From assembly GCA_000092065.1 (NCBI GenBank), contig CP000600.1: a DNA stretch of 64,000 bases; one strand, given 5' to 3'. The stretch's first letter is position 1. Each line of letters opens with the position of its first letter. The notes below the pieces were generated by a model that was given only the letters and a program-made list of their open reading frames with translations, was not told the origin of the DNA and did not search any database. The stretch is from Ostreococcus lucimarinus. Its lineage: Eukaryota. Both the position numbers and the translations under genes were made by a program. Shown here piece by piece: positions 4,831 through 62,960 of this stretch.

Positions 4831-6459
4831 CTAATCGCACTTGATCGCTCGGTAAATGTGACGCACGAAGAGCAGGCTCGCCTTGTGCCCGACGGTGCCG
4901 AGCAACAAAAACCAACCGTAACAAATAATGGCCATGTATCCGAAGTAGTACGTGCTCTGCAAAAAGCCCGTCATGTCGCTTCGCAAATGATAATAATAGA
5001 ACGCGTAACCGAAGATCGCGATCGCGGTACTGCCACCGCACAGCACCGAACGCCACCACCATTCGTGGTCTTCCGCGGTGAGCTGAAAGTACGTCAGCGA
5101 AATCGTCATAAACGCCGTGACGAGGATGAGAATGACGAAGACGACGAAGAGTACGCTATAAATCGTGTACACCTTGTGTCCCCAAACCGAAGCGAAAATG
5201 TAGAACAACTCGATGTAAATAGCGCTGAATGGCAAGAAGCTCGCGATGCACATCTGCGGAATCGTCGCGCGGTACCATGGCAGCGCTGGGATGTCGCGCG
5301 GATACTTCGTTGTTCGCACCGGCGCGTTGAACTCTGCCTTGGCGTTTTTACCGGCTATGCCTCCGACGATGGTGAGAGGAATGGTGACGATGGCCCAAAG
5401 CAAGACGATGAGTACGATGGTACCGAAAGGTAACGCCGCCGTGCTCCTGTACGCGATGGCGACGGTGTTCAAAAACGAGAACAACACGCCGAGCGGGCCG
5501 CAAAACAAGACGCACGTCAACAGCACGTTTCGCACCCAGTTTTCACCACCCATTTGTCTGTACGTATTCGCCGAGACGTAGCCTGCGATGCCTGCGGTGA
5601 GCGAGTACATGATCAAACATGCCGCGGTGACTGCACCCATGCTGTACGGGTAAAACGCGCCAACGAGGGCCAACATGAAGACGAAGATGACGAGAAAGAA
5701 GAGTTGCGTTCCAGTGCCTATTATGGCGGCGAACAGCGACCTGCCCCGCGGGAATCGGAACACATCGCCGTGCACATACTTCCAACCGGACTCTTCTTGA
5801 GACTCCAACATTTCTTCGTCTCGCGCAAACTTGACAAAGTCATTCTTCAACACTCTCAACAAAATTGACGCTAAGAAGCCCATCATCAAAATAACCGTCA
5901 CGCACGAGTTGATGATGCTAAACCAATGAATCTCCAGGTGCTCGGGTAAGAAAGAATACCGCGAGTACTTATCCATTCTATCCTTAAACGCCGTCGTCGT
6001 CGGTTTCCAATGCACGCTATAAGAAAACCGCATCGACATCGCCTCGTCCGCCGTGATATCTACCGTCTTCAATGGATCCGTACTCAAGTTGATCTCAATC
6101 ACTCGATCTTCGTTGTACGAAATCTCAAAGTGCACGTGCGTGAACAAGAAATACCTGTTCTCTGCCGCCGCCCCCCCGCGCATGATCTTCTCCACTTTCC
6201 CGATGAAGCCCCAAATCGGCAAGTCGTCGAACGACATTTGAAAGTAGTAGTCATTCTTCACCGCCCGGCGAAACTTCTCCACCTCTTTCCGCTCTAAAAA
6301 CTGCGTGCACAAGTCCACATTCTCCTTATCGATGCCAAATTCTATCTCATAAGGAGACTTGGCGAGCCTATCCCCACCCAGTACTTCACCCAAATCCGTT
6401 CGCTCGCGCTTGACGCCTTCGGGCGAGCGACAAAACGGGAAATCGTAATACTGATATGT
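4831..6459 (-). CDS. TM9SF: transmembrane 9 superfamily (nonaspanin, EMP70) protein, exon 2
   Basis: ORF 4831..6558 from TYQYYDFPFC onward is a canonical TM9SF body (9 TM helices, KNDFVKFARDEE...); the exon starts at the CAG acceptor immediately before ACA TAT CAG (TYQ). Confidence 0.9.
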   Translation of the reverse strand, partial: TYQYYDFPFCRSPEGVKRERTDLGEVLGGDRLAKSPYEIEFGIDKENVDLCTQFLERKEVEKFRRAVKNDYYFQMSFDDLPIWGFIGKVEKIMRGGAAAENRYFLFTHVHFEISYNEDRVIEINLSTDPLKTVDITADEAMSMRFSYSVHWKPTTTAFKDRMDKYSRYSFLPEHLEIHWFSIINSCVTVILMMGFLASILLRVLKNDFVKFARDEEMLESQEESGWKYVHGDVFRFPRGRSLFAAIIGTGTQLFFLVIFVFMLALVGAFYPYSMGAVTAACLIMYSLTAGIAGYVSANTYRQMGGENWVRNVLLTCVLFCGPLGVLFSFLNTVAIAYRSTAALPFGTIVLIVLLWAIVTIPLTIVGGIAGKNAKAEFNAPVRTTKYPRDIPALPWYRATIPQMCIASFLPFSAIYIELFYIFASVWGHKVYTIYSVLFVVFVILILVTAFMTISLTYFQLTAEDHEWWWRSVLCGGSTAIAIFGYAFYYYHLRSDMTGFLQSTYYFGYMAIICYGWFLLLGTVGHKASLLFVRHIYRAIKCD

Positions 6460-7010: not shown

Positions 7011-9026
7011 CTAGACGATTCGCTGGACGCTACCAAATTGTCCGCGAGCTTTTGCAAGCGCGGCAGTGTACGCCTCGTTCGCCGTCTTCCAATCGCTCTT
7101 GTACTTGGCTTTGCGTTCTGGATCGAGCGAGGCCCACCGCTCGCCGAGCGCCTTGCCGACTTCGCGGAAGTTAAAGGTTGGATTTTCCGCCTTGACTGAC
7201 GGGCGTTCGTCCGTCGCGAACGCTAAGAAGGCAGTGAGCGGCTTTTTCATTCCTGGAACTTCCACCTTGGGTTCCGGCGCCTTCTTTGCCTTTGGATCTT
7301 TAGCTTCCTTCTTCGCCTCTGGCTCCTTCGAGCATCGATCTGCACACCGCTGTGAGGCAGTGCTGAGATCTCGCGCCGCCGAGAGCGCTTCGCTGAGATC
7401 GTGCGCCAAGTCGACTTTGATTTTTTCAACCAAGTTTTCGACCGATTTGTCCGTCAACTCGCGGCTTTCCTTGAGCGTACGATTTTCGGTTTCGAGAAGC
7501 TTGACGTTGAGACGCTCTTGTAGAAGTTTCTTTTTCGTGGCTTCGAGTTGCTTCAATGTCTCAACTCTGAACGTCTCATTCGTTGCTCGGGCTGCGATGA
7601 AAGCGGCGCGGTATCGAGTCGCCTCTAGTTGGAATGCTTTAGGACATCCAGTATTCGGTTCAGAGTTGCGCTTTTCCGACCGTAAACTACACTGTTCGAT
7701 GTCTTCATTGGCGTCGCGGAGCTTGTTCATCAACACGGCAATCGTTTCATCCTTCGCGCTCAAACACTTGTTTCGTAGAGCGAGCTCAGTCGTAGATGCC
7801 TGGAGTTCACTTTGCGTGCGCTCTAATGCCATCTTTAGCGACGGGATTTCTCTCATTTTCCGCGCCGCATCGACTCTAAACTCCTCCACTTCCCTCCTGA
7901 GTTGCTCGGACGTGGATTTGAGTGACTTGGACATTTCAGAAATTGATTTGTTCTCCACAGTCAAGCGCTTCACCTCGTCTCGCAGCTCGGCGTCTGAGCA
8001 CGATGCGAGCTCCTTTTGCAACTCGGCGATTTTCGACTTCAGTTGCACATTTTCAGTCTCGGCAGAGGAGAGTAACTCCACATCGTAGTTGAGCTTTTCA
8101 TTCTCGCCTTCTAAAGACGTCTTCTCCGCATCCAATTTTTCATATCGTTCGAGTGCGTCAACCAAATGACGTTGCAACGAGTCGCAACGTCGTTTCAACT
8201 CGTCGCGGTCGGTTAAAAACGATTTTTTCTCTTCATTAAGCACCACGCACGCGCCATTGTGCGAATGCACGTTCTCCGTCTCCGCTTGAATACGATTGTA
8301 ATCCTCGCGCAGGCGCTCCACGTTTTTCCGCAGGGCTGAGATTTGCGCCTCGTACTCGCGCTCTTCGCCATTCGCACGCATCTTCGCGATCGCCTCGGTC
8401 TCCTCTCGCGCAGCTTTCTCCTTGCGAATTTCCGCGCGTAACTGCTGATTGACCGTGCGCAGATGCGCAATCTCTGACGCCCGCGCGTCGGACTCTTTTC
8501 GAATCGCCTCGATACGAGATGGAAGCGCCTGAAAGTCTTCGCGAGAAAAGGCGGTGGGCTCGGATTCGAACGGTGGCGGCAGCGGCGGCGGCGGCGGCGG
8601 CGAAACACCCCGCGGCGTCTCAAGAGCCTCCACATTCACCATCTGCTCCGTCCTAGCTTTCTTCGATCGCGACGCCGTATCGACGTTCTCGACGAGACCA
8701 GTCTCCTTCGACGTCGTCCGATGCGTCGCCGACGTCTCGCCCTCGACTCCTCCGCGCGATCGCGCGTTAATATTTGGTGACGGGTACCCGCGCGTCGACG
8801 CCGCCGCGGCGACGCGCGTGACGTCGCCCCTCCCATGCGGACTCGCGTCGTCGCGCCGAGGCCGAGGCCGCGGCGCGGCGCTCTGCTTCTGTGTCTGTGC
8901 GTCTCGTTCCGCTCGTTTCGTCGTCGTGAGGGCAGGCGCTTCGCACCGGTCGCACGGGTCAGTGGGTTTACGCGTCGGCGCGATGAACAGCCCCCAACGC
9001 GCGGGCTTTGACTTTTTACGCGGCAT
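7011..9026 (-). CDS. coiled-coil protein with a C-terminal HMG box
   Basis: About 450 aa of heptad-rich sequence (LRAEIRKEKAAREE..., LEGENEKLNYDVELL...) followed by a canonical HMG box (KKPLTAFLAFATDERPSVKAENP...ALGERWASLDPERKAKYKSDWKTANEAY). Confidence 0.7.
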   Translation of the reverse strand: MPRKKSKPARWGLFIAPTRKPTDPCDRCEAPALTTTKRAERDAQTQKQSAAPRPRPRRDDASPHGRGDVTRVAAAASTRGYPSPNINARSRGGVEGETSATHRTTSKETGLVENVDTASRSKKARTEQMVNVEALETPRGVSPPPPPPLPPPFESEPTAFSREDFQALPSRIEAIRKESDARASEIAHLRTVNQQLRAEIRKEKAAREETEAIAKMRANGEEREYEAQISALRKNVERLREDYNRIQAETENVHSHNGACVVLNEEKKSFLTDRDELKRRCDSLQRHLVDALERYEKLDAEKTSLEGENEKLNYDVELLSSAETENVQLKSKIAELQKELASCSDAELRDEVKRLTVENKSISEMSKSLKSTSEQLRREVEEFRVDAARKMREIPSLKMALERTQSELQASTTELALRNKCLSAKDETIAVLMNKLRDANEDIEQCSLRSEKRNSEPNTGCPKAFQLEATRYRAAFIAARATNETFRVETLKQLEATKKKLLQERLNVKLLETENRTLKESRELTDKSVENLVEKIKVDLAHDLSEALSAARDLSTASQRCADRCSKEPEAKKEAKDPKAKKAPEPKVEVPGMKKPLTAFLAFATDERPSVKAENPTFNFREVGKALGERWASLDPERKAKYKSDWKTANEAYTAALAKARGQFGSVQRIV

Positions 9027-23212: not shown

Positions 23213-26200
23213 ATGGCGACGCGCGACGCCCTCGCGGCGTTCTGCGCCGCGTCGGCGCGCGACGACGACGCGACATCGCTCGCGGACGACGTCGCGCTCG
23301 CCGAGATCGCGCGCGCGATCGCGGACGGCGCGCGCGCGGTTTTAGACGTCGTCGTCGACCTGGAAGGATTTCTCACAGCGACCGAGCCAAAGCCGCGGGC
23401 GCGGGCGACGGAAATCCTCGCGCACGTCGCCGAAGAGTGCGCGATGACGCTGGATGATCGCGCGGTGCGCACGCTGAGCGCGTTCTTCGCGTCGAGGTTG
23501 AGCGATTTCGCGTCGACGGCGAGCGCGGCGCGCGGCGCCGAGGCGTTGGTGAAGCGAGCGAACGCGGAGGCGATCGAAGCGACGTCGAGGGCACTTTTCG
23601 CGGAGTGCGACGTGCAGGGGTTGAGACAAAGCGATAGGGAAGCGTGCGTGCGGTTGGCGATCGAAATGCTGCGGAGTGCGCACGCTGGGGCGTGCGCGCG
23701 CGGGGCGGGGGACGGGGAGCCGAACGAGGCGTTGGCGAGAATAATCGGCGCGTTCGATGGGGAGAAGGATCCTAGGTGCGTGTTGGGATTGTGTGAGGTG
23801 TGGACATTGTTGCCAGGGGCGTTTGAGCGGTTCGGGGAGGGTGGAAAGGCGGTGTACGAGGAGAATGCGGAGGAATTGTACGACGTCGCGGCGAGTTACT
23901 TTCCAGTGAGTTTCAAGCCGCCGAGAGGGGATTCGATTAAGATTTCTCGTCGCCAACTCGCGGAGGCGGTCGAACGCGCGATGACGGCGTCACCAACATT
24001 CGCACCGTGGGCCGTCGCGCACGCGTTGGAGAGTTTGAACCCTGAACTAGGTCCGGGGAAGATGGCGGACGCCGCGCGCGCGGTTCGCGCGATGGGCGAA
24101 CGTTTCGGCGCGAGCGTCATGGAAGAATACATGGGTATCGTTTGGCAAGCCATGCGCGCCGCATTGGCGCATCCCAACGCGACGAAGATGGAAGAAGACG
24201 ACGACGTGCAGGCGACGACGCCGATGGCGGTGATGACGACGATGTTTGCCAGCGAATTCACTCGCGGCACGCTCGCGCGCGCGGCGTTGACGGATCAATG
24301 CGTGCGCGACGCCGAAGTGACTTTGCGTCGCATGGCGAACGACAGCTCGTCGGATGACGTCGACGGCGCGTGCGCGATGGAGACCTCAGACGAGGGGTGC
24401 TGTGGCGGTGGTTGCGGCGGTGGGAGTAAGTCGTCCGGCGAAGAAGCGGCGAGGGGAAAACTCGTCGTTGCGACGGCGAGTCGCGTGCTCGGTGCGGTTG
24501 CCGCGGCGACCCCCACACTCGCGCATGATGTCATACACGGCACTTTAAAGTCACTTCTCGACGCCGCGAAGATTCCACGCGAAATAGATGGACTTCATTC
24601 GTCCAAAGCGGCGTACTTGGCTCTCATTCTTGCCACGCCCGCGCTCGGCGGCGCGTTGGATTGCTGCGAACGGAACGCCGAATCAAGTGTGCACATGAGC
24701 GTCTTGGACGATGAAAGTGAACGGTTGGTGGGGCTGTTTGCCGACGCAGCGCTGGGAAAGATCGAATCCCCGAGCTTTGACGAAGGCATCGTTTTAGGTT
24801 TAGCAGGATTGCACATGTTGTGCAAGTTTCCATACAGATTCGGTCTGGCGAGCGCTGAGTCGCGAGTCGCCGTGGCGAGCAAGCTATTCGATGCGATGAT
24901 GGCGCAACACGTAAACGAGTCCGAGGCCGATATCGAAGTGCGCATTGAGCGTTCGATCGATGCGCTCGTCGCCGCAGCGAGCGGTGCGGACGCAAAACTC
25001 GTTGACGCGATGTCGACGGGCGCCGTCGCTCTCCTTGCAGACAAAGTGACAGTTACGAATTTGCAAACCGTCGAAGCGACGCGAGCGATTCGTGCCCTCT
25101 GCGCCCTCGCGGCAGTAAATCAGATGATTCGAAACGACGTCGCGCGATTGTTTTGCGGCGTTGTGCGTGATGCTATCGAGATTGGTTCGCCGAATGCCGA
25201 GGATCTGGTGTCCGCGATGTGCCGCGACGACGACGGTGTACTGACGCGGTTTGTTTCATCCGACGAAGCACAGCGAGCGTGCGCCGATCTCACCACATTT
25301 TGTCTCGCGCGTGATCCTGCCACAACTGCAGAGTCCACCGTGCGCGTCGTCGCGAGCGCGGTGGCGAATTGTGACGACGCGACGCAAGCGCGATTCGCCG
25401 CCGAAGCCGTCGCGCTCTCGCGCGAAAAGCCGCTGATGGCTTGCGCGGTGATTTGTGGACTACGACCGCAAGCGGCGTTCGAAGCGACACACATGGTGGC
25501 CGCTCTCGACGAATTAACGCGCTCGCGCGGCGACCGAGGATTCTCGATGTTCGTCGCCGCCGCCGTCGGTTCGGCGACGCACAAATTCCCGAGCGTGGAC
25601 TTCGCGCCACCTATGGAAGACTTGACGGACGAGCGCACGACTTTCGTTCTCGGTGCGTGCTTGCGCGCGCGAGCGATGCGTCGAGACGATTCGTCGCCAT
25701 CTGATGCGCTGGTTTCGTGTCTCGTTCGCGCTCTCGACGACAGTTCGTCGCCTGAAGCGTCGAGAGGCGCGGCGATGGCGTTGAGCATGGCTGTGGGATT
25801 CAGCGCTGCGCATCGCGACATCGGGCTAGGTTTGAAGTCTTCGACTCACGCGAGCGAAAAGTTCCTCGCGTGTCAACGTTTCTTCACGAAAGTTGCGCCG
25901 ACTTTGATCAAGGGCGCGTACGAAGCCGTGGGCGCGAAGCGCTTGTCGAGATCTTACGCAGTCGTCAAGCTCGCCAGCGGCGTCGCCCCATCCGTGGCAC
26001 TCAGTTCGCAGTTCAACCTGTTCCCGCTGTTACCAGACGTGTTACACGCACTCACCGTCGGTACGCTCGCCGGTGACGACGACGCCGTGCGCGCGGCGCT
26101 CCTCCTCGTCGGCGCGCGACTCGCCGAGCCCGCACTGTACGATGCCGGCAGCGAAGGCGCGACGGAGCAGAACGCCGTCGCTCTCATCGACGCCCTGTGC

Positions 26201-44016: not shown

Positions 44017-44778
44017 ATGTCGTTCATGGACGCGCGCGAGCACGGGTCGAAGATCGGCGGCGGGGGCGTGGCGTCGGCGAGCCAGGGCGCGGTGGATCGG
44101 CGCGAGCGCCTGCGACGGTTGGCGCTGGAGACGATCGATCTGGCGAAAGATCCGTACTTCATGCGGAATCATCTCGGGTCGTACGAGTGCAAGCTGTGCC
44201 TGACGATGCACGCGAACGAGGGGAATTACCTGGCGCACACGCAGGGGAAGCGACACCAACAAAATTTGGCGAAACGCGCGGCGAGGGACGCGAAGGACGC
44301 GGACGCGAGCTTCGGGAAGTCGAAAACGGCGACGATACAGCCGAGGAAGACGATGAAGATCGGACGACCCGGGTACAGGGTGACGAAACAGTACGATAGA
44401 AGGACGCGACAGCGGAGCCTGTTGTTTCAGGTGGACTACCCCGAACGCGAGCTCGGAACCAAGCCGAGGTATCGGTTCATGTCGGCGTACGAACAGAAAG
44501 TCGAGGCGTGGGATAAGCGGTATCAGTACGTGCTGTTCGCGTGCGAACCGTACGAGACGATTGGGTTCAAAATTCCAAACGTGGACGTGGACAAGGCGGG
44601 ACGGGATAAATTTTTCACGCACTGGGACGAGGACGTCAAGACGTACACGTGTCAGTTGACGTTTCGTCGCGTCGACGGCGACGGCGCGCCCCGCGGCGGT
44701 GGAATGCCGCGCGGTGGCATACCGCCGCCGCCGATGGTGGGCGGATTACCGCCGCCGCCGCCGCCGCCGGTTCGCTGA
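44017..44778 (+). CDS. SF3A2: splicing factor 3A subunit 2 (SF3a66/SAP62, PRP11)
   Basis: GSKIGGGGVASASQGAVDRRERLRRLALETIDLAKDPYFMRNHLGSYECKLCLTMHANEGNYLAHTQGKRHQQNLAKRAA is the C2H2 matrin-type zinc-finger region of SF3A2; proline-rich C-terminal tail. Confidence 0.93.
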   Translation: MSFMDAREHGSKIGGGGVASASQGAVDRRERLRRLALETIDLAKDPYFMRNHLGSYECKLCLTMHANEGNYLAHTQGKRHQQNLAKRAARDAKDADASFGKSKTATIQPRKTMKIGRPGYRVTKQYDRRTRQRSLLFQVDYPERELGTKPRYRFMSAYEQKVEAWDKRYQYVLFACEPYETIGFKIPNVDVDKAGRDKFFTHWDEDVKTYTCQLTFRRVDGDGAPRGGGMPRGGIPPPPMVGGLPPPPPPPVR

Positions 44779-53671: not shown

Positions 53672-54222
53672 ACGCGATTCTGGATATCGAGATGCGGGAT
53701 GGATACGACACCCGCGTGTATAAGACCCATCGCGCGTCGTCTCGGCGCGGCTTCACACGCGCGCGCGACTCGGGTGCGATCGAGTCGCGATTCGTGAGAC
53801 GCGTCGTCACACGCGCGAGGCCGTCACGCGCGTTTCGCGTCGAGGCGCGCGCGATCGCGCCCGAAATCGCGACGAAACGCGTCGCGGTCGCGTCGCGTCG
53901 TATCTTTGCGCGCGCGTCGAAAGCGGCGAGGCGACGACGACGCGCGACGACGACGGAATCGAAACGAACGAAACGACGCGACGCGTAAACGCATTGACGA
54001 CGTTCGCGACATCCGAGATCGCGAGGGCGGACACCGGTCGAGGAGGACGGCGACGCGGGGATAATCGCCGAGGGCGAGACGCGCGCGCGGGACGCGGCGA
54101 GACGACGACGCGAAGCGATGTGGGCGCGAGCGGTGGCGGCGGGACCGCGAACGGGACGGGATGGCGAGGCGAAGGGTGAGGGGGAGAAAAAAACGACGCG
54201 CGTCGAGCGAGGCGAGGACGGG

Positions 54223-56544
54223 ATGATGGACACGGCGATGGAGGTCGGGGACGGCGGCGACGGCGCGGGGACGACGCGAGCGAACGGCGCGCGAGAGGGA
54301 AACGCGCGGATGGTGAAGCCGAAGCCGAAGGAGCGGGGGGATCGGGAACAGCGGAATCTGAACGAACATCACGCGCGAAGGGAACAACAGCGCGCGCGGC
54401 ACGATGGCGCGGTGAACGGCGCGGGCGGTGGGAAACGGGGGGGGGCGAGAGATTTGGAGGATTTGATCGCGCGCGTCGAGGACGCCGAGGACGCTGCGGC
54501 GGTGGAGCGCGTGTTGCGGCAATCCGTCTTCAAACCGGGCGCACCGGCGTACACGACCGTAATCAAGGCGTGTGGGAAAGCGTCGCAGTGGGAAAAAGCG
54601 CTCAAGGCGTACGAGATGATGACGAAGTTACACGGCGCCAAGCCGAACACGATAACGTTTTCGGCGTTGATCAACGCGCTGGGCAAGGCAAAACAGTGCG
54701 ACAGGGCGTTTCAAATCTTCGACGAGATGAATGATCGAGGAATCGAGCCGAACATTTTCACTTACTCCGCACTTTTGGGCGCGTGTGCCAGGGCGAAGCA
54801 GTACCAGAGAGCGATGGACATCTTTCAAGACTTGATTGAAAATCATCGCGACGTCGAAGTCGATCGAATCACGTACGGCGCCGCGATTCAGTGTTGCGTG
54901 CAAGGTCGGCGAGCGGACAAGGCAATTGAAATTTTCGAGCGAATGCTTGCGTCTGGAATCAAGGGGAACATCATCACCTACAACGCCGTGCTGATGGCGT
55001 GCGAGAAGAGCGGCGACTCGGATGGGGCGCAGGAGATGTTTGAACGCATGAGCGCCGAGCAAGTTCCGATGGATCGCGCGACGTTTCACGCCATGATTGG
55101 CGCGTGCGATCGCGCTCGACAGCTTTCCAAAGTGATGGACTACTATCACATGATGCCAGAGCGCGGCGTTACGCCAGATGCGGGGACTGTGTCGAACGTT
55201 TTGATGGCGTGCAGTAACGCCAAGGACCCTTTAACGGCGATTAAAGTGTACCACGACGCTCGAGCGAAGTTTGACGTCCATCGCACGCCCGGCATGTTCA
55301 ACAACCTCATCGGTGCGTTACACCGTGGCAAGCGATATGACTTGGTTTACGAACAGCTGTTTCACGATAGTATGACGCAAAGTGCGCTCTCGGTGTCGAC
55401 GTACGTTCATCTCATGATGGCGTGCGAGCGATTCGGTAACTGGGAGAAATCTTTTCAACTTTTTGAAGAGTTCAAAAGACACTCTCCTTCGAGCGTAGAT
55501 TCATACGTCTGGACGCGAGTGTTTTACGCGTGCGGACGATTTGAAAGTGACGATCCGGTATGGAAGAATGGAGCCATTCCTGGGTACACGAGTCCGACGC
55601 TCCAACGCGCGCAAGCCACGATGCGAGCGCTTTGGGCCGAGTACAAGTCGAAATTGAGCGTGTTTAAAGAAATCAGCGCGGTGGCGGCGCGAGTCAGCAG
55701 AGCTGGTAGCAATCATCCGTCGGCACAAAGTGACGTCGACGCGTCTCTCGCTTTGGCGTCGGCGAAGCATTCAGAGCTCGCGCAGACGCACGAGGCGGCG
55801 CCCGCCGCGGAGTCAGCCGTCGAACAAGAATTCGTGCAATTGATCAACGCATACAGATCCGCCGCGGCGGCGGCAGCGCGATGCTCTGATCCGAGCACGG
55901 TTCTAGATATCCTTCGCACGTGCGAGTACGACGGAATTCCACAGGATTCGGTGATTTACGGCGCTTTCGTCGCCGCGCTCGCCCTCAACGGCGACCGCGT
56001 GGGGGCGAATGAAAAGTTCAGAGAGATGTTCACGTTGGGATTACAGCCGGGCGTGGCGGTGTACGCTGCGCTCGCGCGAGCTGCTGCACGAGCGGGTGAC
56101 GCTAATACCGCGCTCAGTCTCGCCGAGGATGTGAGATCCATGGTCGGAAGCTCGGTGGGCGACGGCGCCATCATCGACGCGGTGGTGGCGGCGTGCGAGG
56201 CCGGAGGGGACTGGACGCGCGGCGCGAGTTTGTTCACAATGTGGGCGGCAAATGGCGTCCAGGGGGCGAACGACGAATTGCGACGTGCAATCGCGGCGAG
56301 CAGTGGCCTCGATCCGGGGCCCACGAGACGGGGCACAAGTGTGTACAACGCTTTCCGACGCGAACCGCCGGCTGAGTCCCAAGGCGTCGCCGCCCCGCGA
56401 GATGCAAAAACGACGACGCTCACGGCGAAAGTTCAACCGTTCGTCCCGCGGGGAAGACCTTCGGTGCTGCGTGACGACGCAAAATCGAGCGAATCGAAGT
56501 CACCGCCAGATGAAGGAGAAAATCCTCCGGACGAAGCTTTGTGA
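54223..56544 (+). CDS. pentatricopeptide-repeat (PPR) protein
   Basis: About 12 consecutive 35-aa PPR units (YTTVIKACGKASQWEKALKAYEMM, TFSALINALGKAKQCDRAFQIFDEM, TYSALLGACARAKQYQRAMDIF, TYNAVLMACEKSGDSDGAQEMFERM ...). Start set at ATG 54223 (MMDTAM); the track begins at 54118. Confidence 0.85.
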   Translation: MMDTAMEVGDGGDGAGTTRANGAREGNARMVKPKPKERGDREQRNLNEHHARREQQRARHDGAVNGAGGGKRGGARDLEDLIARVEDAEDAAAVERVLRQSVFKPGAPAYTTVIKACGKASQWEKALKAYEMMTKLHGAKPNTITFSALINALGKAKQCDRAFQIFDEMNDRGIEPNIFTYSALLGACARAKQYQRAMDIFQDLIENHRDVEVDRITYGAAIQCCVQGRRADKAIEIFERMLASGIKGNIITYNAVLMACEKSGDSDGAQEMFERMSAEQVPMDRATFHAMIGACDRARQLSKVMDYYHMMPERGVTPDAGTVSNVLMACSNAKDPLTAIKVYHDARAKFDVHRTPGMFNNLIGALHRGKRYDLVYEQLFHDSMTQSALSVSTYVHLMMACERFGNWEKSFQLFEEFKRHSPSSVDSYVWTRVFYACGRFESDDPVWKNGAIPGYTSPTLQRAQATMRALWAEYKSKLSVFKEISAVAARVSRAGSNHPSAQSDVDASLALASAKHSELAQTHEAAPAAESAVEQEFVQLINAYRSAAAAAARCSDPSTVLDILRTCEYDGIPQDSVIYGAFVAALALNGDRVGANEKFREMFTLGLQPGVAVYAALARAAARAGDANTALSLAEDVRSMVGSSVGDGAIIDAVVAACEAGGDWTRGASLFTMWAANGVQGANDELRRAIAASSGLDPGPTRRGTSVYNAFRREPPAESQGVAAPRDAKTTTLTAKVQPFVPRGRPSVLRDDAKSSESKSPPDEGENPPDEAL

Positions 56545-56713: not shown

Positions 56714-58018
56714 TCACAAGAGGCGAGCGATTTCGTCAGTCTCGAACTCGGGCGCTCGTCGAAGGCGACGTATGACGATGCCGACGATGGTGACAGCGAC
56801 CACACAAAAAAGTGAAGCGCGCGACACGTCTAGGTCACGAGTGCTGACTACGATTGAAGCTTTCGAGCCCAGACGTGCGCTGACACTCGATGTCGGCGAC
56901 GCTTCGCCGTTGAGCTCTCTTTGGAGCTCGGCGAGTTGTTGCTGCAAGCCGGGCATCGAAGGGTGGTCGGGCTTGCGTCTGCCGATCTTTCTGGTGAGCC
57001 GGCGAATATCCCGCTTAAGTTTAGCGGCCTGATCCGGCGTCAAAGCCGGCGGCGAGGACACGGGCTCGGACGCCGGACTCGGACTCGATGTCGGCGACGC
57101 TTCGCCGTTGAGCTCTCTTTGGAGCTCGGCGAGTTGTTGCTGCAAGCCGGGCATCGAAGGGTGGTCCGGCTTGCGTCTGCCGATCTTTCTGGTGAGCCGG
57201 CGAATATCCCGCTTAAGTTTAGCGGCCTGATCCGGCGTCAAAGCCGGCGGCGAGGACACGGGCTCGGGCGCCGGACTCGGACTCTCCACCGGAGTCGACG
57301 ACGGATGTGCGTCTGGAGTCGCCGTTGGCGGCGGGTTCGGTGGCGGATTCGGCGGCGGATTCGGCGGCGGACTCGGCGGCGGCGGGTTCGGCGGCGGATT
57401 CGGCGGCGGACTCGGCGGCGGCGGACTCGGCGTCCCCCCGTTCACCGTGGACGTCACCGACGACGTCACCGTGGACGACACCGACCCCTCACCCAACGCC
57501 GCGCCGACGCCCTTCGTCCACGCCCTCGCGCCCAGCGCCCGCGTCGCCTCTCCCCATCGCTCGATCGCGCCTCCTTCACCCGTTCCGCACGTCCCGATCG
57601 CGAGCGCCAAGCACGCGCACGCCCCCGCCGCGCGCCACCGTCTCGCGCGCGTCGTCCCTCGCCTCCGCGCGTCGTCCCTCGCGTCGTCGCTCGCGCTTCC
57701 GCGCGACGTCCGCGTCGCCCCGTACGTCCCTCGCGTCGTCGTCGCGTCGTCCTCGCTCGCGCGCGCGCGTCCCGTCGCGCGCGTCATCCCTCGCGCGTCC
57801 CGCGCGTCCCGCGCGTCCCGCGAACGCGTCGTCCCGAAGTCGTCCCGAACGCGCGCGCGGTCGGCGTCGAGCGGCGGCGCGACGGCGGTCGGGGTCGGCG
57901 TCGCGCGCGCCCGGCGCGACGCGCGCGCGGCGCCGTGACGGGGTCTAAGCGTTAGACGCAACTCCAATTCGTAGCCCGCGCGCGTGTATTTCGTAACACC
58001 ATACACCGATCGGCACAT
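56714..58018 (-). CDS. proline-rich repeat protein with a C-terminal transmembrane anchor (HRGP-like; start uncertain)
   Basis: PPPSPPPNPPPNPPPPSPPPNPPPNPPPNPP block, two identical 66-aa repeats (PVSSPPALTPDQAAKLKRDIRRLTRKIGRRKPDHPSMPGLQQQLAELQRELNGEASPTSS) and a C-terminal TM (LFCVVAVTIVGIVI). The N-terminal 75 codons of the ORF are low complexity, and the real start is probably an internal Met. Confidence 0.6.
   Translation of the reverse strand: MCRSVYGVTKYTRAGYELELRLTLRPRHGAARASRRARATPTPTAVAPPLDADRARVRDDFGTTRSRDARDARDARGMTRATGRARASEDDATTTRGTYGATRTSRGSASDDARDDARRRGTTRARRWRAAGACACLALAIGTCGTGEGGAIERWGEATRALGARAWTKGVGAALGEGSVSSTVTSSVTSTVNGGTPSPPPPSPPPNPPPNPPPPSPPPNPPPNPPPNPPPTATPDAHPSSTPVESPSPAPEPVSSPPALTPDQAAKLKRDIRRLTRKIGRRKPDHPSMPGLQQQLAELQRELNGEASPTSSPSPASEPVSSPPALTPDQAAKLKRDIRRLTRKIGRRKPDHPSMPGLQQQLAELQRELNGEASPTSSVSARLGSKASIVVSTRDLDVSRASLFCVVAVTIVGIVIRRLRRAPEFETDEIARLL
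56887..57280. repeat. near-perfect 2 x 197-bp direct tandem duplication inside the proline-rich gene
   Basis: Units starting at about 56887 and about 57084 differ at only 2-3 positions (seen directly); this produces the duplicated 66-aa peptide. Confidence 0.9.
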
Positions 58019-58053
58019 CGCGCGGCGACGGCGTCCGACGCGCGTTCGCGACG

Positions 58054-59322
58054 ATGGCGAGCGAGCGCGAGGGATTGTTGCGAACGAACGAACGCGCGAC
58101 GACGACGACGGCGAACGCGCGCGACGACGACGAGGACGCGGCGACGCGCGCGGCGTGGACGAGGACGCGCGACGACGAGGATGGCGACGAGGGTGTTACG
58201 CGCGCGAGGGCGAGGACGCGGACGCGCGCGTCGCGCGCGCGGGCGTTCGGGATGGCGTTCGTCGCGTTGTGCGCGCTCGTGGGGGGGCTAGCGCTCGTGA
58301 AAGCGGAACGAGCGCGCGGGGCGGGGAGGATCGATCGCGCCGCGCTCGGCGGCGCGGCGAGGGCGCAAAACGCGCCCGGACACGTGCCGGGATTGGCCGA
58401 ACACGTCGAGAGCGTGACGCGGAGCACGAAGTTTCGGGCGATTACGTTCTGTAATAAGTCGTATTGGACGTTCGCGCACGCCTTGCTGGAGTCGATGAAG
58501 GCTGTGGCGCCGTCCATCGTGGACTTTTGGACAGTCATCGTTCCGGACGAGGCGACGAAGGAGTTCATCGAAAAGGAAACGGCGGGGGCGGGGCACAAGA
58601 TTGACGTCTACGTCGACGATGACTTACGCAAGCAAGTCGCGAAGTTTGCCGAAGCGAGCAAAGAAGAGCTCAAGTCGATGCTGTCGTGGCGGCGCGTGCA
58701 CGCGGTGCAAACGCTCGTGGACAACGACTACACGGTGATGTTCCTCGAGCCCGACGCGGTGATGCAAAAGAACCCTTTGCAGCTCATCCACGACCAGCTC
58801 ACGACGAACGATCTCGTGCTCGGGGCGGACTACGGCTTAGGGACGACGGCGCGCAAGCACGCGAACACAAAGGTGATCGTGGCCAAGCCTTCCGTGCAAG
58901 GGAAGAAGCTGCTCAACGTCTGGCAGCGCGCCGAACAGACGTACTCGGGCGATAAGGCGGAGGTTGGGTTCCTTCTTAACGACGTCATCCCGCACATCGA
59001 CGCCCTGACGGCAAAGATACAAATCCTGGACCAGACCGTCGTCGGAAACTACCTCACCCACCACGAAAAAGCCGGGCAAGCCATCGTCACGGGGATGGGT
59101 TGCGACAACGTCGATTTCAAAATAAACTTTATGGCGCAGTTGTTGCGACACGTCCAACCGGACGATCCGAACGCCCCGAAGAGCGCGATAGATTACGAAG
59201 GCGTCTCCGCGGGATGCGACTACGCGGGCCGAGAGAAAGTCTTCAAAATTTCGAACGAGTTCGCAAAGAAGAAGATGGCGGCAAAGTTGGGATCGAACAA
59301 GGCGACTTCGAGCGATGAGTAA
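58054..59322 (+). CDS. type-II membrane nucleotide-diphospho-sugar transferase (Nucleotid_trans / GT77-like glycosyltransferase)
   Basis: Cytoplasmic tail, signal anchor (AFGMAFVALCALVGGLALV), then FRAITFCNKSYWTFAHALLESM...WTVIVPDE, D-rich VYVDDD, SWRRVHAVQTLVDNDYTVMFLEPDAVM resembling PF03407-type plant/algal arabinosyl/xylosyltransferases; family assignment is from memory. Confidence 0.55.
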   Translation: MASEREGLLRTNERATTTTANARDDDEDAATRAAWTRTRDDEDGDEGVTRARARTRTRASRARAFGMAFVALCALVGGLALVKAERARGAGRIDRAALGGAARAQNAPGHVPGLAEHVESVTRSTKFRAITFCNKSYWTFAHALLESMKAVAPSIVDFWTVIVPDEATKEFIEKETAGAGHKIDVYVDDDLRKQVAKFAEASKEELKSMLSWRRVHAVQTLVDNDYTVMFLEPDAVMQKNPLQLIHDQLTTNDLVLGADYGLGTTARKHANTKVIVAKPSVQGKKLLNVWQRAEQTYSGDKAEVGFLLNDVIPHIDALTAKIQILDQTVVGNYLTHHEKAGQAIVTGMGCDNVDFKINFMAQLLRHVQPDDPNAPKSAIDYEGVSAGCDYAGREKVFKISNEFAKKKMAAKLGSNKATSSDE

Positions 59323-59395: not shown

Positions 59396-61384
59396 CTAAC
59401 GTCTCGGTCGAACTCGCCGCCCATCGTTCGCTTCATCGTCGACAGCTCCATCGTCGAGCGCGCGGCGGTCGACGGCGGCGCGATCCTCACCGCCGCCGCC
59501 GCCGGGTGTGCTGAGAAGTTCTTGCGTGGGGGGTATCGTCAAATCGGCTTGCGAGATCATCGCCGCCATCGCATCTTGCTCAGCGATGCCGCCGTCGTGT
59601 GGCATCGCGTCCAAAACCGCGGCAGATGTGGGCGGCGCGAGGCGCTGCACGCGAGAGGCGAGAAAATTGCTGAACGCGCTCATCGCCGGCAGCGTCGCAA
59701 GGTTCGCCGCCATGTCTGTCCCCGCATTCGCCAGATTCGGCAGTGTGAGAACGCCCTGTGTACCATCTACGTTTCGAGCCGCCGCCGCCGCCACCGCTGC
59801 CGCGGTCGCCCCGGGGGGGGCGTGCATGGAGACTCCGGCGCCGTCTTGCGCGGGCACGGGCGCGCTCGGGAACACTTCAGCCTTCGGACGCAGAGCGCGC
59901 ATTTCTGCGACAGAGCTTAATATTTCGCCAGCCAAGTGCGGACATGAAATGTTCATAGCTTCGTAGCCCTCCGTCGACATGACGTCGCTCAGGTTGGCGG
60001 CGATGAAGCTCATGCACGCGCGCTTGAGCGCGTCGGCGTGGTTCAACTCGGCGAGCATGAGAGTGTTCGCTACGGTGTCAACGTCCACGGATTCGCACAA
60101 ACGTGCCTCGCACATCGCGCGAAGTCTGCTCAAGTCAAATCTATCCGCGGCGACGAGCAAGTGTTGCGTCATTGGAACGTCCAAGTTGACTTCGTCCGAA
60201 GCCCGACCCGTCGCTCGCGGACCCACCAACGCGCCAGTCGCGTCGATTTCGCCGTCGGCATCCCCCCTGTGCGCGCCACCCAGCAGGGCGTGCGCGCCGT
60301 CATCACTGACGCCCGAGCCTTCGCGCGGGATTTCGTCTGCGTACACGAAGTGCAACAACAAACGAAACACGCTCGGCTTTATGTCGAGAAGCGTGCACAC
60401 GCCCTCGCGTCCTTCGCGCATGGCGGCTCCTGTGCGGAGCATGGCGGCGAACACGCTCGAGCGTGACGACAAGATGAGTTTATGCGCTCTAAACTTTTCG
60501 CCCTCGACGTCGAAGGTGCAGTCGAAATCAGAGTCCGGGTCGTGCAGTAATCGAACGAGGTGTTTTCCGATCGTCGGATACGAGGGCACGTTGACGCTCG
60601 CCGCCGGCAGCAACTTCATGTTCTTGTTCAGCGCCCCACCGCTGGTGACGACAAGCTCTATCTCGTATCGTATCACGACGACATCGTTCAGCAGATACCC
60701 CGTCCCCGATCCCTCCAAAACCGACCTGCGGACGAATTTACGATAGCCGTGACAGTTGCGCGCTTGCGGGTCTTGCCTCGCGCACGAAATTTTGACCGCC
60801 CCTTGCTCGCGCTGTCGCCCTTTCGTGATGTGTCGCCCGTTCCCACTTTGATCTACCAGGGTAAATCTGTGAAACGCCCGCACGACGCGTCCTTGTCCGC
60901 TTTGCACCACCCCCAACGGCCTCGGCCCTTCGCCGATGAGGGCGACGAAGAGCGCCGCGTACGGATCGTCTTGCGGCGCGCTCGGCGCGTTCCCATCGCT
61001 CATCGAGCGCTTACCGTCTGGATAAAACAACAGCACCCATTCGTGTCCGCCCACCATGAACCGATCGCTCGCGATCGGTTCACCGTCGCCCAATCCCTTC
61101 AACAAGCTGTACCCGCTTATCGTGTGTTCGTGGCGCCCGATGACCGTCGTCGTCGACGTTCGCGACGCCGCGGACACGCCCGCCGGCGTCGTCGTCGCCG
61201 GACACGCCGCACTCGCCCCGATCGCCGTCGTCGCCGTCGTCGCCATCGCGCGCGCGTTCCATCGTTCGTGTCGCTCCGGCGTCGAATCCGCCGGTCGTCG
61301 CGCCGCGTGCGTCGCGTCGCGCGCGTCGCCCGGCGCGCGCGCGCGCGCGCGGGGCGTCGTCGACGGCGTCGCGCGCGGATCCAT
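59396..61384 (-). CDS. MATH-BTB/POZ protein (SPOP/BPM-like Cullin-3 substrate adaptor)
   Basis: MATH domain (HTISGYSLLKGLGDGEPIASDRFMVGGHEWVLLFYPDG ... VIRYEIELVV), then BTB (DCTFDVEGEKFRAHKLILSSRSSVFAAMLRTGAAMRE...CTLLDIKPSVFRLLLHFVYADEIP) and a BACK-like helix region. Start set at MDPRATP (61382-61384); the upstream ORF part has a V10 run and is R/P-rich. Confidence 0.78.
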   Translation of the reverse strand: MDPRATPSTTPRARARAPGDARDATHAARRPADSTPERHERWNARAMATTATTAIGASAACPATTTPAGVSAASRTSTTTVIGRHEHTISGYSLLKGLGDGEPIASDRFMVGGHEWVLLFYPDGKRSMSDGNAPSAPQDDPYAALFVALIGEGPRPLGVVQSGQGRVVRAFHRFTLVDQSGNGRHITKGRQREQGAVKISCARQDPQARNCHGYRKFVRRSVLEGSGTGYLLNDVVVIRYEIELVVTSGGALNKNMKLLPAASVNVPSYPTIGKHLVRLLHDPDSDFDCTFDVEGEKFRAHKLILSSRSSVFAAMLRTGAAMREGREGVCTLLDIKPSVFRLLLHFVYADEIPREGSGVSDDGAHALLGGAHRGDADGEIDATGALVGPRATGRASDEVNLDVPMTQHLLVAADRFDLSRLRAMCEARLCESVDVDTVANTLMLAELNHADALKRACMSFIAANLSDVMSTEGYEAMNISCPHLAGEILSSVAEMRALRPKAEVFPSAPVPAQDGAGVSMHAPPGATAAAVAAAAARNVDGTQGVLTLPNLANAGTDMAANLATLPAMSAFSNFLASRVQRLAPPTSAAVLDAMPHDGGIAEQDAMAAMISQADLTIPPTQELLSTPGGGGGEDRAAVDRRALDDGAVDDEANDGRRVRPRR

Positions 61385-61472: not shown

Positions 61473-62960
61473 ATGGATGCGACGCGCGTCGCCGCACTCG
61501 TCGTCGACGGAGCCCGACACCGCGTCGCGTCGCGTTGCGTCGCGTCGCGTCGCGCGCGCGGGATGCGCGGGGCGTCCGCGACGCCGTTTCGCGCGACGCG
61601 CGCGCGCGTCGACGCGCGCCCGCGACGCGTCGGAGGAGGAGGACGACGAACGACGACGACGACGACGACGACGACGCGAGCGTTCCTGCGCGGTGTGTTC
61701 GGCGGTGGGAAACGAGGAAAGCGCGACGTCGTCGACGCGGATGAGGTGCGAAAGAACGAACGCGAGTGCGTGCTGCAAACGTACGGCCGAGGCGAGACTG
61801 AGGTGATGGTTCGGGGAAAGGGTTGCGCGCTGTTCGACGCGAGCGGGAAGGAGTTTTTAGATTTCACGAGCGGGATCGCGGTGAATTGCCTCGGACACGC
61901 GGATGAAGGCGTGGCGCGAGTGATCGCCGAACAAGCGCGCACGCTGACGCACACGTCGAACTTGTATCACACCGAACCGGGGGCGACGCTCGCGAGAAAG
62001 CTCACGGCGACGTCGTTCGCCGACAGAGTCTTCTTTTGCAACTCGGGAACGGAGGCGAACGAGGGGGCGTTGAAATTCGCGAGAAAGTACGCCAAAACGC
62101 GCGCGCAGGCGCTGGGGAAAAACGCCGGCGACGCGGCGTGGGAGACGGTGAGTTTTGAAAACGGTTTTCACGGCCGAACGTTCGGCGCGCTTTCGCTGAC
62201 GTGGAAGGAGGGCTACCGCGCGCCGTTCGCCCCGGGACTTCCGGGGAACACGTTCACGCCGTACGGTGACTTGGAAAAAGCGCGTCAAGTGATCGTCAAA
62301 GGTCGCACGTGCGCCGTGTTCGTCGAGCCGGTGCAAGGCGAAGGTGGCATTTACCCCGCCGACGCCGAGTTCTTGCGAGGCTTGCGAGCGATTTGCGACG
62401 AAGCCGACGCCTTGCTCGTGTACGACGAGGTGCAGTGCGGCTTGGGACGAACGGGTAAACTCTGGGGCCATCAACTTATTAAAGACGCCGAGCCGGATAT
62501 GATGTCGGTGGCGAAACCGCTGGCGAACGGCTTGCCCATCGGCGCCGTGCTGATGAAAGAAAAAGTCGCCGCCGTCATGGCCGCGGGCGACCACGGATCG
62601 ACGTTCGCGGGCGGGCCTTTGGTGTGCGCCGTGGCGAACGAGGTCTTCGACCGGGTGAGTGATCCCGCCTTCTTAGCCAACGTCACCGAACGCGGGAACG
62701 AGTTGAAGTCGTCGCTCACCGAAAAGCTCGCCGGTCACCCGCGTCTTCGCGAGGTTCGCGGCGCGGGCTTGCTCGTCGGCGTGCAATTCGACTGCCCCAC
62801 CGCCCCGCTCGTCGCGGCGTGTCGCGCGCGCGGTCTGTTGACCATCACCGCTGGTAAGGGTGACATCTTGCGTCTCGTCCCTCCGCTCATCGTCTCGAGC
62901 GCGCAGGTGCAAAAGGCCACCGACATCGTCAAGGAGTGCGCGTTCGAAGCCTTGCGGTGA
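61473..62960 (+). CDS. ARGD: acetylornithine aminotransferase (class-III PLP aminotransferase, ArgD-like) with a transit-peptide-like leader
   Basis: VLQTYGRGETEVMVRGKGCALFDASGKEFLDFTSGIAVNCLGH, LYHTEPGATLARKL, FFCNSGTEANEGALKFARKY, LLVYDEVQCGLGRTGKLWG, a Lys-containing SVAKPLANGLP block and TFAGGPL. Start at ATG 61473 (MDATRVAAL); the leader contains poly-Thr9. Confidence 0.9.
   Translation: MDATRVAALVVDGARHRVASRCVASRRARGMRGASATPFRATRARVDARPRRVGGGGRRTTTTTTTTTRAFLRGVFGGGKRGKRDVVDADEVRKNERECVLQTYGRGETEVMVRGKGCALFDASGKEFLDFTSGIAVNCLGHADEGVARVIAEQARTLTHTSNLYHTEPGATLARKLTATSFADRVFFCNSGTEANEGALKFARKYAKTRAQALGKNAGDAAWETVSFENGFHGRTFGALSLTWKEGYRAPFAPGLPGNTFTPYGDLEKARQVIVKGRTCAVFVEPVQGEGGIYPADAEFLRGLRAICDEADALLVYDEVQCGLGRTGKLWGHQLIKDAEPDMMSVAKPLANGLPIGAVLMKEKVAAVMAAGDHGSTFAGGPLVCAVANEVFDRVSDPAFLANVTERGNELKSSLTEKLAGHPRLREVRGAGLLVGVQFDCPTAPLVAACRARGLLTITAGKGDILRLVPPLIVSSAQVQKATDIVKECAFEALR

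Follow-up and report, generated by a model that had tools for sequence, protein, structure and literature searches.

As the sequence-only reading of the locus described here had noted, plant GT77 enzymes include extensin arabinosyltransferases; among the characterised PF03407 members, RRA1-3 of clade A and XEG113 of clade C act on extensin Hyp-arabinosides (PMC3797821; PMC5371791). The same family contains RGXT1-4 (clade B, RG-II alpha-1,3-xylosyltransferases) and Dictyostelium AgtA (Skp1 alpha-galactosyltransferase), which are retaining, Mn2+-dependent GT-A enzymes (PMC2793385), and GT77 is therefore not confined to extensin substrates; reports of clade B members do not extend to algae (PMC3797821). 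Ostreococcus has about 8 GT77 paralogues per genome, and both GT95 and GT96 are present (PMC13213038). O. tauri showed no detectable Hyp-Araf4 (PMC5371791), and prasinophytes are reported to lack the GT75 mutase, the supplier of UDP-Araf (PMC3797821). With respect to potential acceptors, 8 EXT-like proteins have been reported in O. lucimarinus (PMC4769139 S1 Table), from which classical EXTs are reported to be absent; the "chimeric EXTs" of algae carry SP3-4 repeats within an otherwise unrelated protein and have no YXY motifs (PMC4769139).

Here we describe a divergent gene pair located in a 64-kb stretch of O. lucimarinus DNA (hereafter, the window), which comes from the gene-dense, intron-poor, GC-rich genome of a marine prasinophyte. 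ORFs were present where they had been placed by the sequence-only reading, one of 434 aa (56714..58018, -) and one of 422 aa on the opposite strand, and their features are listed in Table 1. We consider it probable that the two genes are functionally independent neighbours, an old glycosyltransferase (GT) and a young gene encoding a Pro-rich protein.

Table 1. Features of the GT/Pro-rich locus, in window coordinates.
Feature	Position	Strand	Details
GT77-family (PF03407) type II membrane glycosyltransferase	58054..59322	+	422 aa; ORF and Pfam match
GT signal-anchor TM GMAFVALCALVGGLALV, aa 66-82	58249..58299	+	KD 2.41; AF2 helix 55-83
Nucleotid_trans catalytic domain, aa 155-360	58516..59133	+	well-folded part aa ~105-380
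E232-P233-D234 at DxD position	58747..58755	+	invariant in 21 subfamily sequences
Spacer between both start codons, 266 bp	57788..58053		indel-polymorphic, partly unalignable with L007
5' extension of longest Pro-rich ORF, 77 codons, non-conserved	57788..58018	-	frame broken in L001/L005/L006
Pro-rich orphan gene, most likely CDS	56714..57787	-	357 aa, Met78 start, stop codon included
Weak N-terminal hydrophobic segment AAGACACLALAIGTCGT, aa 53-69	57581..57631	-	KD mean 1.64 over 17 residues
Ser/Thr-rich stretch SVSSTVTSSVTSTVNGGT	57428..57487	-	translation; conserved in L007
xPPP array SPPPPSPPPNPPPNPPPPSPPPNPPPNPPPNPPP, 3 SP3-4 and 5 NP3-4 units	57326..57427	-	TRF period 12, 7.7 copies
Tandem duplication, 198 bp x 2.0 copies, 99% identity	56885..57284	-	TRF score 786; two 66-aa helix-loop-helix units
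C-terminal TM helix LFCVVAVTIVGIVI, aa 323-339	56771..56821	-	KD 2.4; AF2 helix 324-344
Predicted cytosolic tail RRLRRAPEFETDEIARLL, ends EIARLL	56717..56770	-	[DE]xxxL[LI]-type motif match

The Nucleotid_trans/GT77-like assignment proposed earlier was borne out by the Pfam profile check: PF03407, which that reading and the literature equate with CAZy GT77, matched the GT over its full length, from profile position 2 to 208 of 208 (E = 3.4e-34; score 119 bits, gathering cut-off 22), and is carried by every GT homologue found. The proposed type II membrane topology also held, with one strong TM segment after a 65-aa N-terminal tail, and the start codon is supported by an N-terminal ERxxLL motif that most homologues conserve. 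The AF2 model is confident (pLDDT >85 over aa ~105-330, and 77-84 up to aa ~380) and shows a GT-A fold related to retaining transferases; no GT77 structure was found in the PDB, and a viral fold search with the GT returned generic GT-A matches alone, with no prasinovirus relative. The E-P-D triplet aligns with D-A-D of the outgroup P0072 and appears to be a conservative DxD variant, a putative metal/nucleotide-sugar site; the protein also has invariant Cys residues. We propose that the GT would be a retaining-type GT-A enzyme with this E-x-D site and with its catalytic domain toward the secretory lumen, most likely moving sugar from a UDP-sugar onto a glycan or glycoprotein acceptor.

PF03407, the type II topology and the GT-A fold are common to the GT, RRA1-3 and XEG113, and its overall size (422 aa) is close to that of the RRAs. 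The GT differs from these enzymes in having E-P-D in place of DxD and in belonging to a subfamily of 36 marine-metagenome proteins (profile matches), among which there is no named plant or chlorophyte protein and whose closest outgroup is 27% identical. It also differs from AgtA, which is cytosolic whereas the GT carries a signal anchor. The exact protein occurs in 311 blocks of public assemblies, for the most part marine metagenomes, and orthologues with 36-87% identity are found in at least seven further lineages or haplotype groups. Its dN/dS against the sister lineage L007 is 0.31, and the GT appears to be an old gene under purifying selection. This compact, well-conserved, Mamiellophyceae-type subfamily, with its invariant E-P-D and conserved N-terminal ExxxLL tail, provides a defined target for learning what "wall-less" picoalgae do with ~8 GT77 genes.

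The second gene encodes an SPPP/NPPP-repeat membrane protein, and the HRGP/extensin-like features previously attributed to it are evident in its translation. Its array SPPPPSPPPNPPPNPPPPSPPPNPPPNPPPNPPP, the sole long Pro-rich array within the window, comprises SPPPP at aa 121, SPPP at aa 126 and 139, and five NP3-4 blocks (the extensin/HRGP criterion is at least two SP3-5 units). No YXY cross-link motifs were found in the protein, which has 1 Tyr in 357 aa, in line with the report that O. lucimarinus lacks classical EXTs (PMC4769139). It resembles the algal chimeric EXTs in this and in carrying its SP3-4 repeats within an otherwise unrelated protein, and it differs from those of O. lucimarinus and from Chlamydomonas HRGPs in its C-terminal TM anchor and sorting-type tail, in having more NPPP than SPPP units, and in the lack of homologues outside its lineage. 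A string search of the 8 listed O. lucimarinus EXTs, in fragmented sequence text, did not find it.

This protein had been described as single-pass; its membrane character stands, whereas a single pass holds only if the first of two hydrophobic segments is a cleaved signal. That segment, AAGACACLALAIGTCGT, follows a charged N-region of 52 aa (net charge +6 over the 50 aa ahead of it) and could act either as a signal anchor or as a signal peptide whose n-region is long. Further along, SVSSTVTSSVTSTVNGGT is a possible O-glycosylation region, and AF2 predicts the duplicated units as helical hairpins (185-204/212-226 and 251-270/278-292; pLDDT 85-96). The helix LFCVVAVTIVGIVI is followed by a basic stop-transfer, and the tail RRLRRAPEFETDEIARLL is invariant but for T/I in all three family sequences. 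Since a [DE]xxxLL motif lies in the predicted cytosolic tails of both the GT and the Pro-rich protein, the two could share trafficking.

Taken from the membrane outward, the product would display 1-5 helical hairpins, a variable polyproline rod, an S/T-rich segment and a small Gly/Ala-rich tip, that is, a mucin/HRGP-like membrane protein presumably anchored and sorted by its conserved TM helix and ExxxLL tail. MUC1-like animal mucins are VNTR type I membrane proteins whose ectodomain is rich in Pro, Ser and Thr and whose cytoplasmic tail is short and conserved. The type I-like layout and the repeat-number polymorphism are shared with them by analogy, but there is no sequence kinship, and the repeats here are polyproline blocks and helical hairpins rather than PTS mucin repeats.

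The genes are indeed divergent; the gap of ~35 bp given for them is not retained. The frame 5' of MTRATG is interrupted in three contigs (L001, L005, L006), positions 57927-58019 have no alignment to L007, and a Met is also present in L007 at the position of Met78. Since conservation of the 434-aa ORF does not extend to its first 77 codons, the CDS likely spans 56714..57787 and the spacer is 266 bp; translation most likely begins at Met78 (57787) rather than at 58018. The segment 57788..58018 is then probably non-coding (5'UTR/promoter), and the spacer is a putative bidirectional promoter. Back to the preceding stop, the Pro-rich ORF measures 343 to 493 codons depending on the haplotype, and from Met78 it is open in all nine gap-free same-species contigs, with lengths of 278-357 aa. 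The spacer itself ranges from 266 to 575 bp over haplotypes and lineages (266-277, 443, about 510 and 575 bp). Head-to-head geometry with a short spacer (90-450 bp) is routine in this genome: 3 of the 12 adjacent gene pairs in the same 17 kb are divergent, the neighbours MATH-BTB(-)/aminotransferase(+) have 88 bp between them, and gene spacers in the surrounding region are about 70-450 bp.

Both a word-indexed search of 5.8e9 proteins and an exhaustive phmmer scan of 1.84e9 representatives returned 3 matches alone for the Pro-rich protein, and scanning the DNA independently of gene calls gave 5 loci, each 95-99% identical. No homologue was detected outside its own lineage by the protein searches and the DNA scan, so that the supposed substrate is much younger than the GT. 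A viral origin of the orphan was ruled out, with no viral relatives found, and the JGI label "ribosomal protein S15P/S13E" on the fragment P0056 is spurious (Pfam S15 E = 0.011; 16 bits against a cut-off of 31).

The suggestion that the two genes form a co-regulated pair of substrate and enzyme failed the synteny check. The pair was found only in the lineage of the window and in L007, where the GT is 87% identical and all flanking genes are collinear too, and it has been kept across a split with a dS of about 0.15-0.2. In contrast, no Pro-rich gene lies beside the GT (~36-65% identical) in seven more distant lineages or haplotype groups (L008/L009, L010/L011, L012, L020, L021, L022 and L023); recurrent GT neighbours in distant lineages are a ~340-aa secreted protein, PIH1 and PLATZ. 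The adjacency thus appears to be recent, and, viewed as an enzyme-substrate cassette, the locus is ordinary, with a recent adjacency and a geometry typical of the genome.

The Pro-rich gene varies in its repeats, with 5-17 xPPP units among haplotypes and about 27 in L007, and with 1-2 of the 66-aa hairpin units among haplotypes compared with ~5 copies of a 207-bp unit in L007. The arrays of L007 and L014 are far bigger than those of same-species contigs, and N gaps occur in the repeat region of L002 and L004; part of the copy-number variation could be short-read assembly collapse of 99%-identical repeats. The gene has a dN/dS of 0.95 in its C-terminal part and 1.33 in its N-terminal part, against about 0.3 in neighbour genes. 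Its most constrained part is the TM+tail block (omega 0.54; differences by codon position 8/3/9), and a McDonald-Kreitman-style test had too few sites (1 synonymous and 1 nonsynonymous polymorphism). The gene appears very young, lineage-restricted and fast-evolving. It would represent a repeat-polymorphic membrane protein confined to one lineage of an abundant ocean picoeukaryote, and genes of this type are candidates for host-virus or mating interactions; metagenome gene callers regularly mis-annotate its locus.

For two independent neighbours, the history would be as follows. The Pro-rich gene would have emerged recently between the PPR gene and the GT, giving rise to the head-to-head order, and would evolve via gain and loss of repeats together with near-neutral or diversifying substitution. 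Its product may be hydroxylated and glycosylated by the general Hyp-O-glycosylation machinery, and such generic Hyp-glycosylation is possible, while nothing links the protein specifically to the adjacent GT. A point against independence is that, by our own post hoc estimate, chance would place a GT77 gene next to an EXT-like gene in only a few percent of such genomes under strict definitions, a modest but not negligible rate, given the 8 EXT-like proteins (PMC4769139) and about 8 GT77 genes (PMC13213038) reported for O. lucimarinus.

The reality of the Pro-rich gene itself has to be considered, since the ORF might not, or not yet, encode a functional protein. It could be a proto-gene or a spacer, GC-rich and bearing repeats, possibly transcribed divergently from the GT promoter, with a frame that composition and repeats, and not selection, hold open. 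This would fit the overall dN/dS of about 1, the absence of homologues elsewhere, and a six-frame substitution test in which the claimed frame was not set apart from the other five over the C-terminal block. Long antisense ORFs coexist with it (344 aa, + strand), metagenome callers took + strand ORFs alone in 4 of 6 contigs (L001, L002, L004 and L006) and both strands in L005, and the frame is broken in L007 and L014. However, these breaks fall within repeats rich in homopolymers, each in a single contig, and could reflect faulty assembly, and the TM+tail sub-block, the only one set apart in the six-frame test, combines its low omega with a position-2 deficit. The ORF also stays intact from Met78, although its length changes, in 9/9 same-species contigs free of gaps; a non-coding stretch of 1.5 kb would stand out among spacers of about 70-450 bp; and the coherent architecture (N-segment, S/T, polyPro, hairpins, TM, basic stop-transfer, tail) is preserved in L007. 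We regard an unselected frame as unlikely.

It seems quite unlikely to us that the two genes form a dedicated, co-regulated module, with one bidirectional promoter for both and with a GT that, in the manner of RRA/XEG113, extends Hyp-linked glycans on the neighbour's xPPP array during passage of both proteins through the Golgi. Membership of PF03407/GT77, the extensin substrates of clades A and C, the 3 SP3-4 and 5 NP3-4 blocks of the neighbour, the divergent genes with their 266-bp spacer, the ExxxLL-type tails on both proteins and the retention of the pair in L007 all speak for it, as does the presence of the extensin-pathway genes GT95, GT96 and GT47 in Mamiellophyceae (PMC13213038). Against it, no lineage with a GT ≤65% identical has the pair, the putative substrate gene is an orphan whereas the GT is conserved, the spacer is poorly conserved and indel-polymorphic, and divergent pairs are common locally. 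The placement of the GT in a subfamily without named plant or chlorophyte sequences among its 36 matches, and the reported lack of the GT75 UDP-Ara mutase in prasinophytes (PMC3797821), also argue against such a module.

It is very unlikely, in our view, that the locus holds a newborn, possibly de novo, surface glycoprotein gene that arose from divergent transcription at the GT promoter and is under diversifying selection and repeat-length switching, its rod being glycosylated by the recruited GT. Such a product might serve in gamete recognition or in prasinovirus attachment, or as a decoy for such viruses, to name examples; if this were true, the locus would show an enzyme-substrate module at a very early stage of its formation.

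Finally, we give almost no credence to a true gene on the + strand at 56.7-58.0 kb (e.g. 56921..57955, 344 aa) with the Pro-rich frame as its antisense shadow: open + strand ORFs do exist in the window and in L007 and are picked by some gene callers, but they leave the conserved 56714-56900 block uncovered, and + strand coding was rejected on the content of the products, which are Arg-rich low-complexity strings without TM, domain or Pfam match, and on GC by codon position, which is 0.81/0.70/0.68 with GC3 lowest in 56921..57955 and 0.61/0.43/0.82 with GC3 highest in real local genes.

Both ORFs that the sequence-only reading had placed head to head, a glycosyltransferase gene (GT) and a gene for an xPPP-repeat membrane protein (Pro-rich gene), were found as claimed. 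The window has a GC content of ~62%, and 3 of the 12 adjacent gene pairs in the 17 kb around GT are divergent. In public assemblies, 311 indexed blocks contain the exact GT protein, and most of these come from marine metagenomes, TARA among them; in the six contigs shown, its neighbors are identical (6/6), gene density is ~1 per 1.2 kb, and introns are not obvious. An 852 aa ORF at the MATH-BTB gene is over-extended (662 aa in gene calls), and the longest-ORF start of the aminotransferase, at 61056, likewise overlaps the MATH-BTB gene.

The glycosyltransferase family proposed earlier was borne out by a PF03407 (Nucleotid_trans) match of 119 bits that covers the entire profile. The protein has a single strong transmembrane segment (aa 66-82) behind a 65 aa tail, and its AF2 model, with 21 homologs as input, is confident over aa ~105-380; no solved GT77 structure was found in the PDB. 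The DxD position is occupied by E232-P233-D234, which is invariant among homologs and aligns with the D-A-D of P0072, the nearest outgroup. Searches with a single sequence and a profile returned 26 and 36 homologs, respectively, every one an unnamed environmental protein, and the nearest protein outside the subfamily has 27% identity. Host contigs of GT relatives have 49% GC (Bathycoccus-like) or 65-66% GC (Micromonas-like). The alga itself is probably of the Mamiellophyceae type, with Ostreococcus as its likeliest affinity. The annotated start is supported by an N-terminal ERxxLL motif kept in most homologs, and dN/dS is 0.31 against the ortholog of the sister lineage L007 (87% identical). 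The subfamily is divergent and GT77-like. Clade A of GT77 comprises RRA (Hyp-Ara1 to 2), clade B the RG-II xylosyltransferases RGXT, without algal members, clade C XEG113 (Hyp-Ara2 to 3), and clade D proteins of unknown function; clades A and C are represented in prasinophytes, but the GT75 UDP-Ara mutase is reportedly missing there (PMC3797821). Each Ostreococcus genome has ~8 GT77 genes, alongside GT95, GT96, and GT47 (PMC13213038).

The first 77 codons of the 434 aa Pro-rich ORF are non-conserved, with the frame disrupted in the contigs L001, L005, and L006; ORF length back to the preceding stop varies among haplotypes, and in L007, too, a Met stands where the window has Met78. This lack of conservation, together with the Met in L007, suggests that the CDS probably starts at Met78, so that the ~35 bp spacer first described becomes 266 bp. 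Across haplotypes and lineages the spacer measures 266-575 bp (443 bp in L001, L006, L017, and L018, ~510 bp in L014 and L015, and 575 bp in L007), and its alignment to L007 fails in part. Within the species it is indel-polymorphic (266-277, 443, and ~510 bp), in contrast to the GT coding sequence, which hardly varies.

The Pro-rich protein begins with a charged region, a weak hydrophobic segment (aa 53-69), and an S/T-rich stretch. It has eight xPPP units (three SP3-4 and five NP3-4), two 66 aa units arising from a 198 bp tandem duplication (99% identity), both confidently predicted as helix-loop-helix (AF2, pLDDT 85-96), a strong transmembrane segment (aa 323-339), and the tail RRLRRAPEFETDEIARLL, whose final six residues match [DE]xxxL[LI]. 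Since it has a single Tyr, the YXY cross-link motif is absent, and no Pfam family scored above threshold. Its sequence features are those of an orphan chimeric HRGP-like membrane protein.

The non-repeat C-terminal module had three matches among 5.8e9 proteins and three among 1.84e9 representatives (exhaustive phmmer scan). Scanning metagenome-contig DNA without gene calls gave five Pro-rich loci, each 95-99% identical, and no relatives were found on viral contigs. The ORF is open from Met78 in 9/9 gap-free same-species contigs, among which the protein varies from 278 to 357 aa, with 5-17 xPPP and 1-2 hairpin units; in these contigs GT is 100% identical and SNPs are nearly absent. L007 has ~27 xPPP units, a novel PNAYPTTPTPVPGES array, and ~5 hairpin units, and L014 has still more units, yet with frame breaks, all such counts being subject to possible collapse of 99%-identical repeats by short-read assemblers (N gaps occur in L002 and L004). 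Against L007, the C-terminal part has a dN/dS of 0.95 and the N-terminal part one of 1.33, compared with 0.31 for GT and 0.27 for the PPR gene, and constraint is seen only in the block of transmembrane segment and tail (omega 0.54; differences by codon position 8/3/9). We conclude that the Pro-rich gene is real, very young, and fast-evolving, and consider it unlikely to be a non-functional proto-gene.

The frame breaks inside the repeat arrays of L014 and L007 may reflect erroneous indels where repeats are rich in homopolymers, or else some haplotypes may truly be pseudogenized. P0057, a protein from L014, is an apparent mosaic of window-type and L007-type C-termini. In four of six contigs (L001, L002, L004, and L006), metagenome gene callers replaced the Pro-rich gene with wrong-strand, Arg-rich antisense ORFs, so protein databases under-represent genes of this kind; GC by codon position speaks against coding by antisense ORFs. 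The label "ribosomal protein S15P/S13E" on P0056 belongs to a mislabeled Pro-rich fragment.

In L007 the pair is retained, but so are all other neighbors. The upstream neighbor of GT in L008/L009 (GT 62% identical) and L010/L011 (65%) encodes a ~340 aa secreted protein on the same strand, with no Pro-rich gene within 8 kb either side of GT. No Pro array stands beside GT in L012, L020, L021, L022, or L023, where recurrent neighbors are the ~340 aa protein, PIH1, and PLATZ. Synteny, by which a co-regulated enzyme and substrate were to be checked, thus fails for the pair, which is absent from L008-L012 and L020-L023. A block of PPR, GT, MATH-BTB, Aminotran_3, PLATZ, PIH1, and the ~340 aa protein is conserved in content, its order reshuffled by local inversions (L008-L012 and L021-L023 versus the window); in distant lineages GT and PLATZ are most commonly convergent. 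Synteny across L007-L012 and L020-L023 thus places GT in an old block that has been shuffled locally, with the Pro-rich gene as a lineage-specific addition between PPR and GT. The family and protein features of the sequence-only reading were right, and its dedicated substrate-enzyme link found no support. Such a link is unlikely with synteny negative, and keeps a small probability because only eight EXT-like proteins are catalogued in O. lucimarinus (PMC4769139), so that chance would not readily bring a GT77 gene next to an EXT-like one, and because both proteins have ExxxLL-type tails.

These motifs lie at the extreme ends of the predicted cytosolic tails. That of the Pro-rich protein is invariant in its family; that of GT (ERxxLL/ExxPLL-type) would be unusual for a Golgi-resident glycosyltransferase, which hints at post-Golgi or endosomal sorting. 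The ~340 aa family (secreted, Cys-containing, without Pfam match) is the most recurrent neighbor of the GT subfamily across distant lineages, adjoining GT in three and lying two genes off in L022. In the window lineage its gene, the ortholog of the L008/L009 and L010/L011 upstream neighbor (52% identity), lies ~8 kb downstream of GT, just past the window end. If GT has a conserved partner, this protein makes the stronger candidate, ahead of the Pro-rich gene. Elsewhere in the window, four short proline runs appear in other frames, all far shorter than the Pro-rich array.

Coordinates of the features in the window and in related contigs
Feature	Sequence	Coordinates	Strand	Remark
PPR protein gene	window	54118..56544	+	flanks pair
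Pro-rich ORF	window	56714..58018	-	434 aa
Pro-rich CDS, likely	window	56714..57787	-	357 aa
EIARLL	window	56717-56734	-	Pro-rich C-terminus
Pro-rich array	window	57326-57427
Spacer	window	57788-58053		266 bp
GT	window	58054..59322	+	422 aa
EREGLL	window	58063-58080	+	GT N-terminus
MATH-BTB/SPOP-like gene	window	59396-61384	-	flanking; divergent from Aminotran_3
Aminotran_3 gene	window	61473-62960	+	flanking; 88 bp spacer to MATH-BTB
RPPPSPPPPP	window	4137-4166	-	proline run
SPPPPPPLPPP	window	8571-8603	-	proline run
LPPPQPPP	window	24403-24426	-	proline run
LPPPPPPP	window	44746-44769	+	proline run
~340 aa family	L010	6818-7849	+
~340 aa family	L008	6631-7665	+
~340 aa family	L021	662-1696	-
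~340 aa family	L022	~274-1194	-
~340 aa family	L001	16213-17232	-
Frame breaks, Pro-rich repeats	L014	4863-6246	+
Frame breaks, Pro-rich repeats	L007	~5272-5300	-
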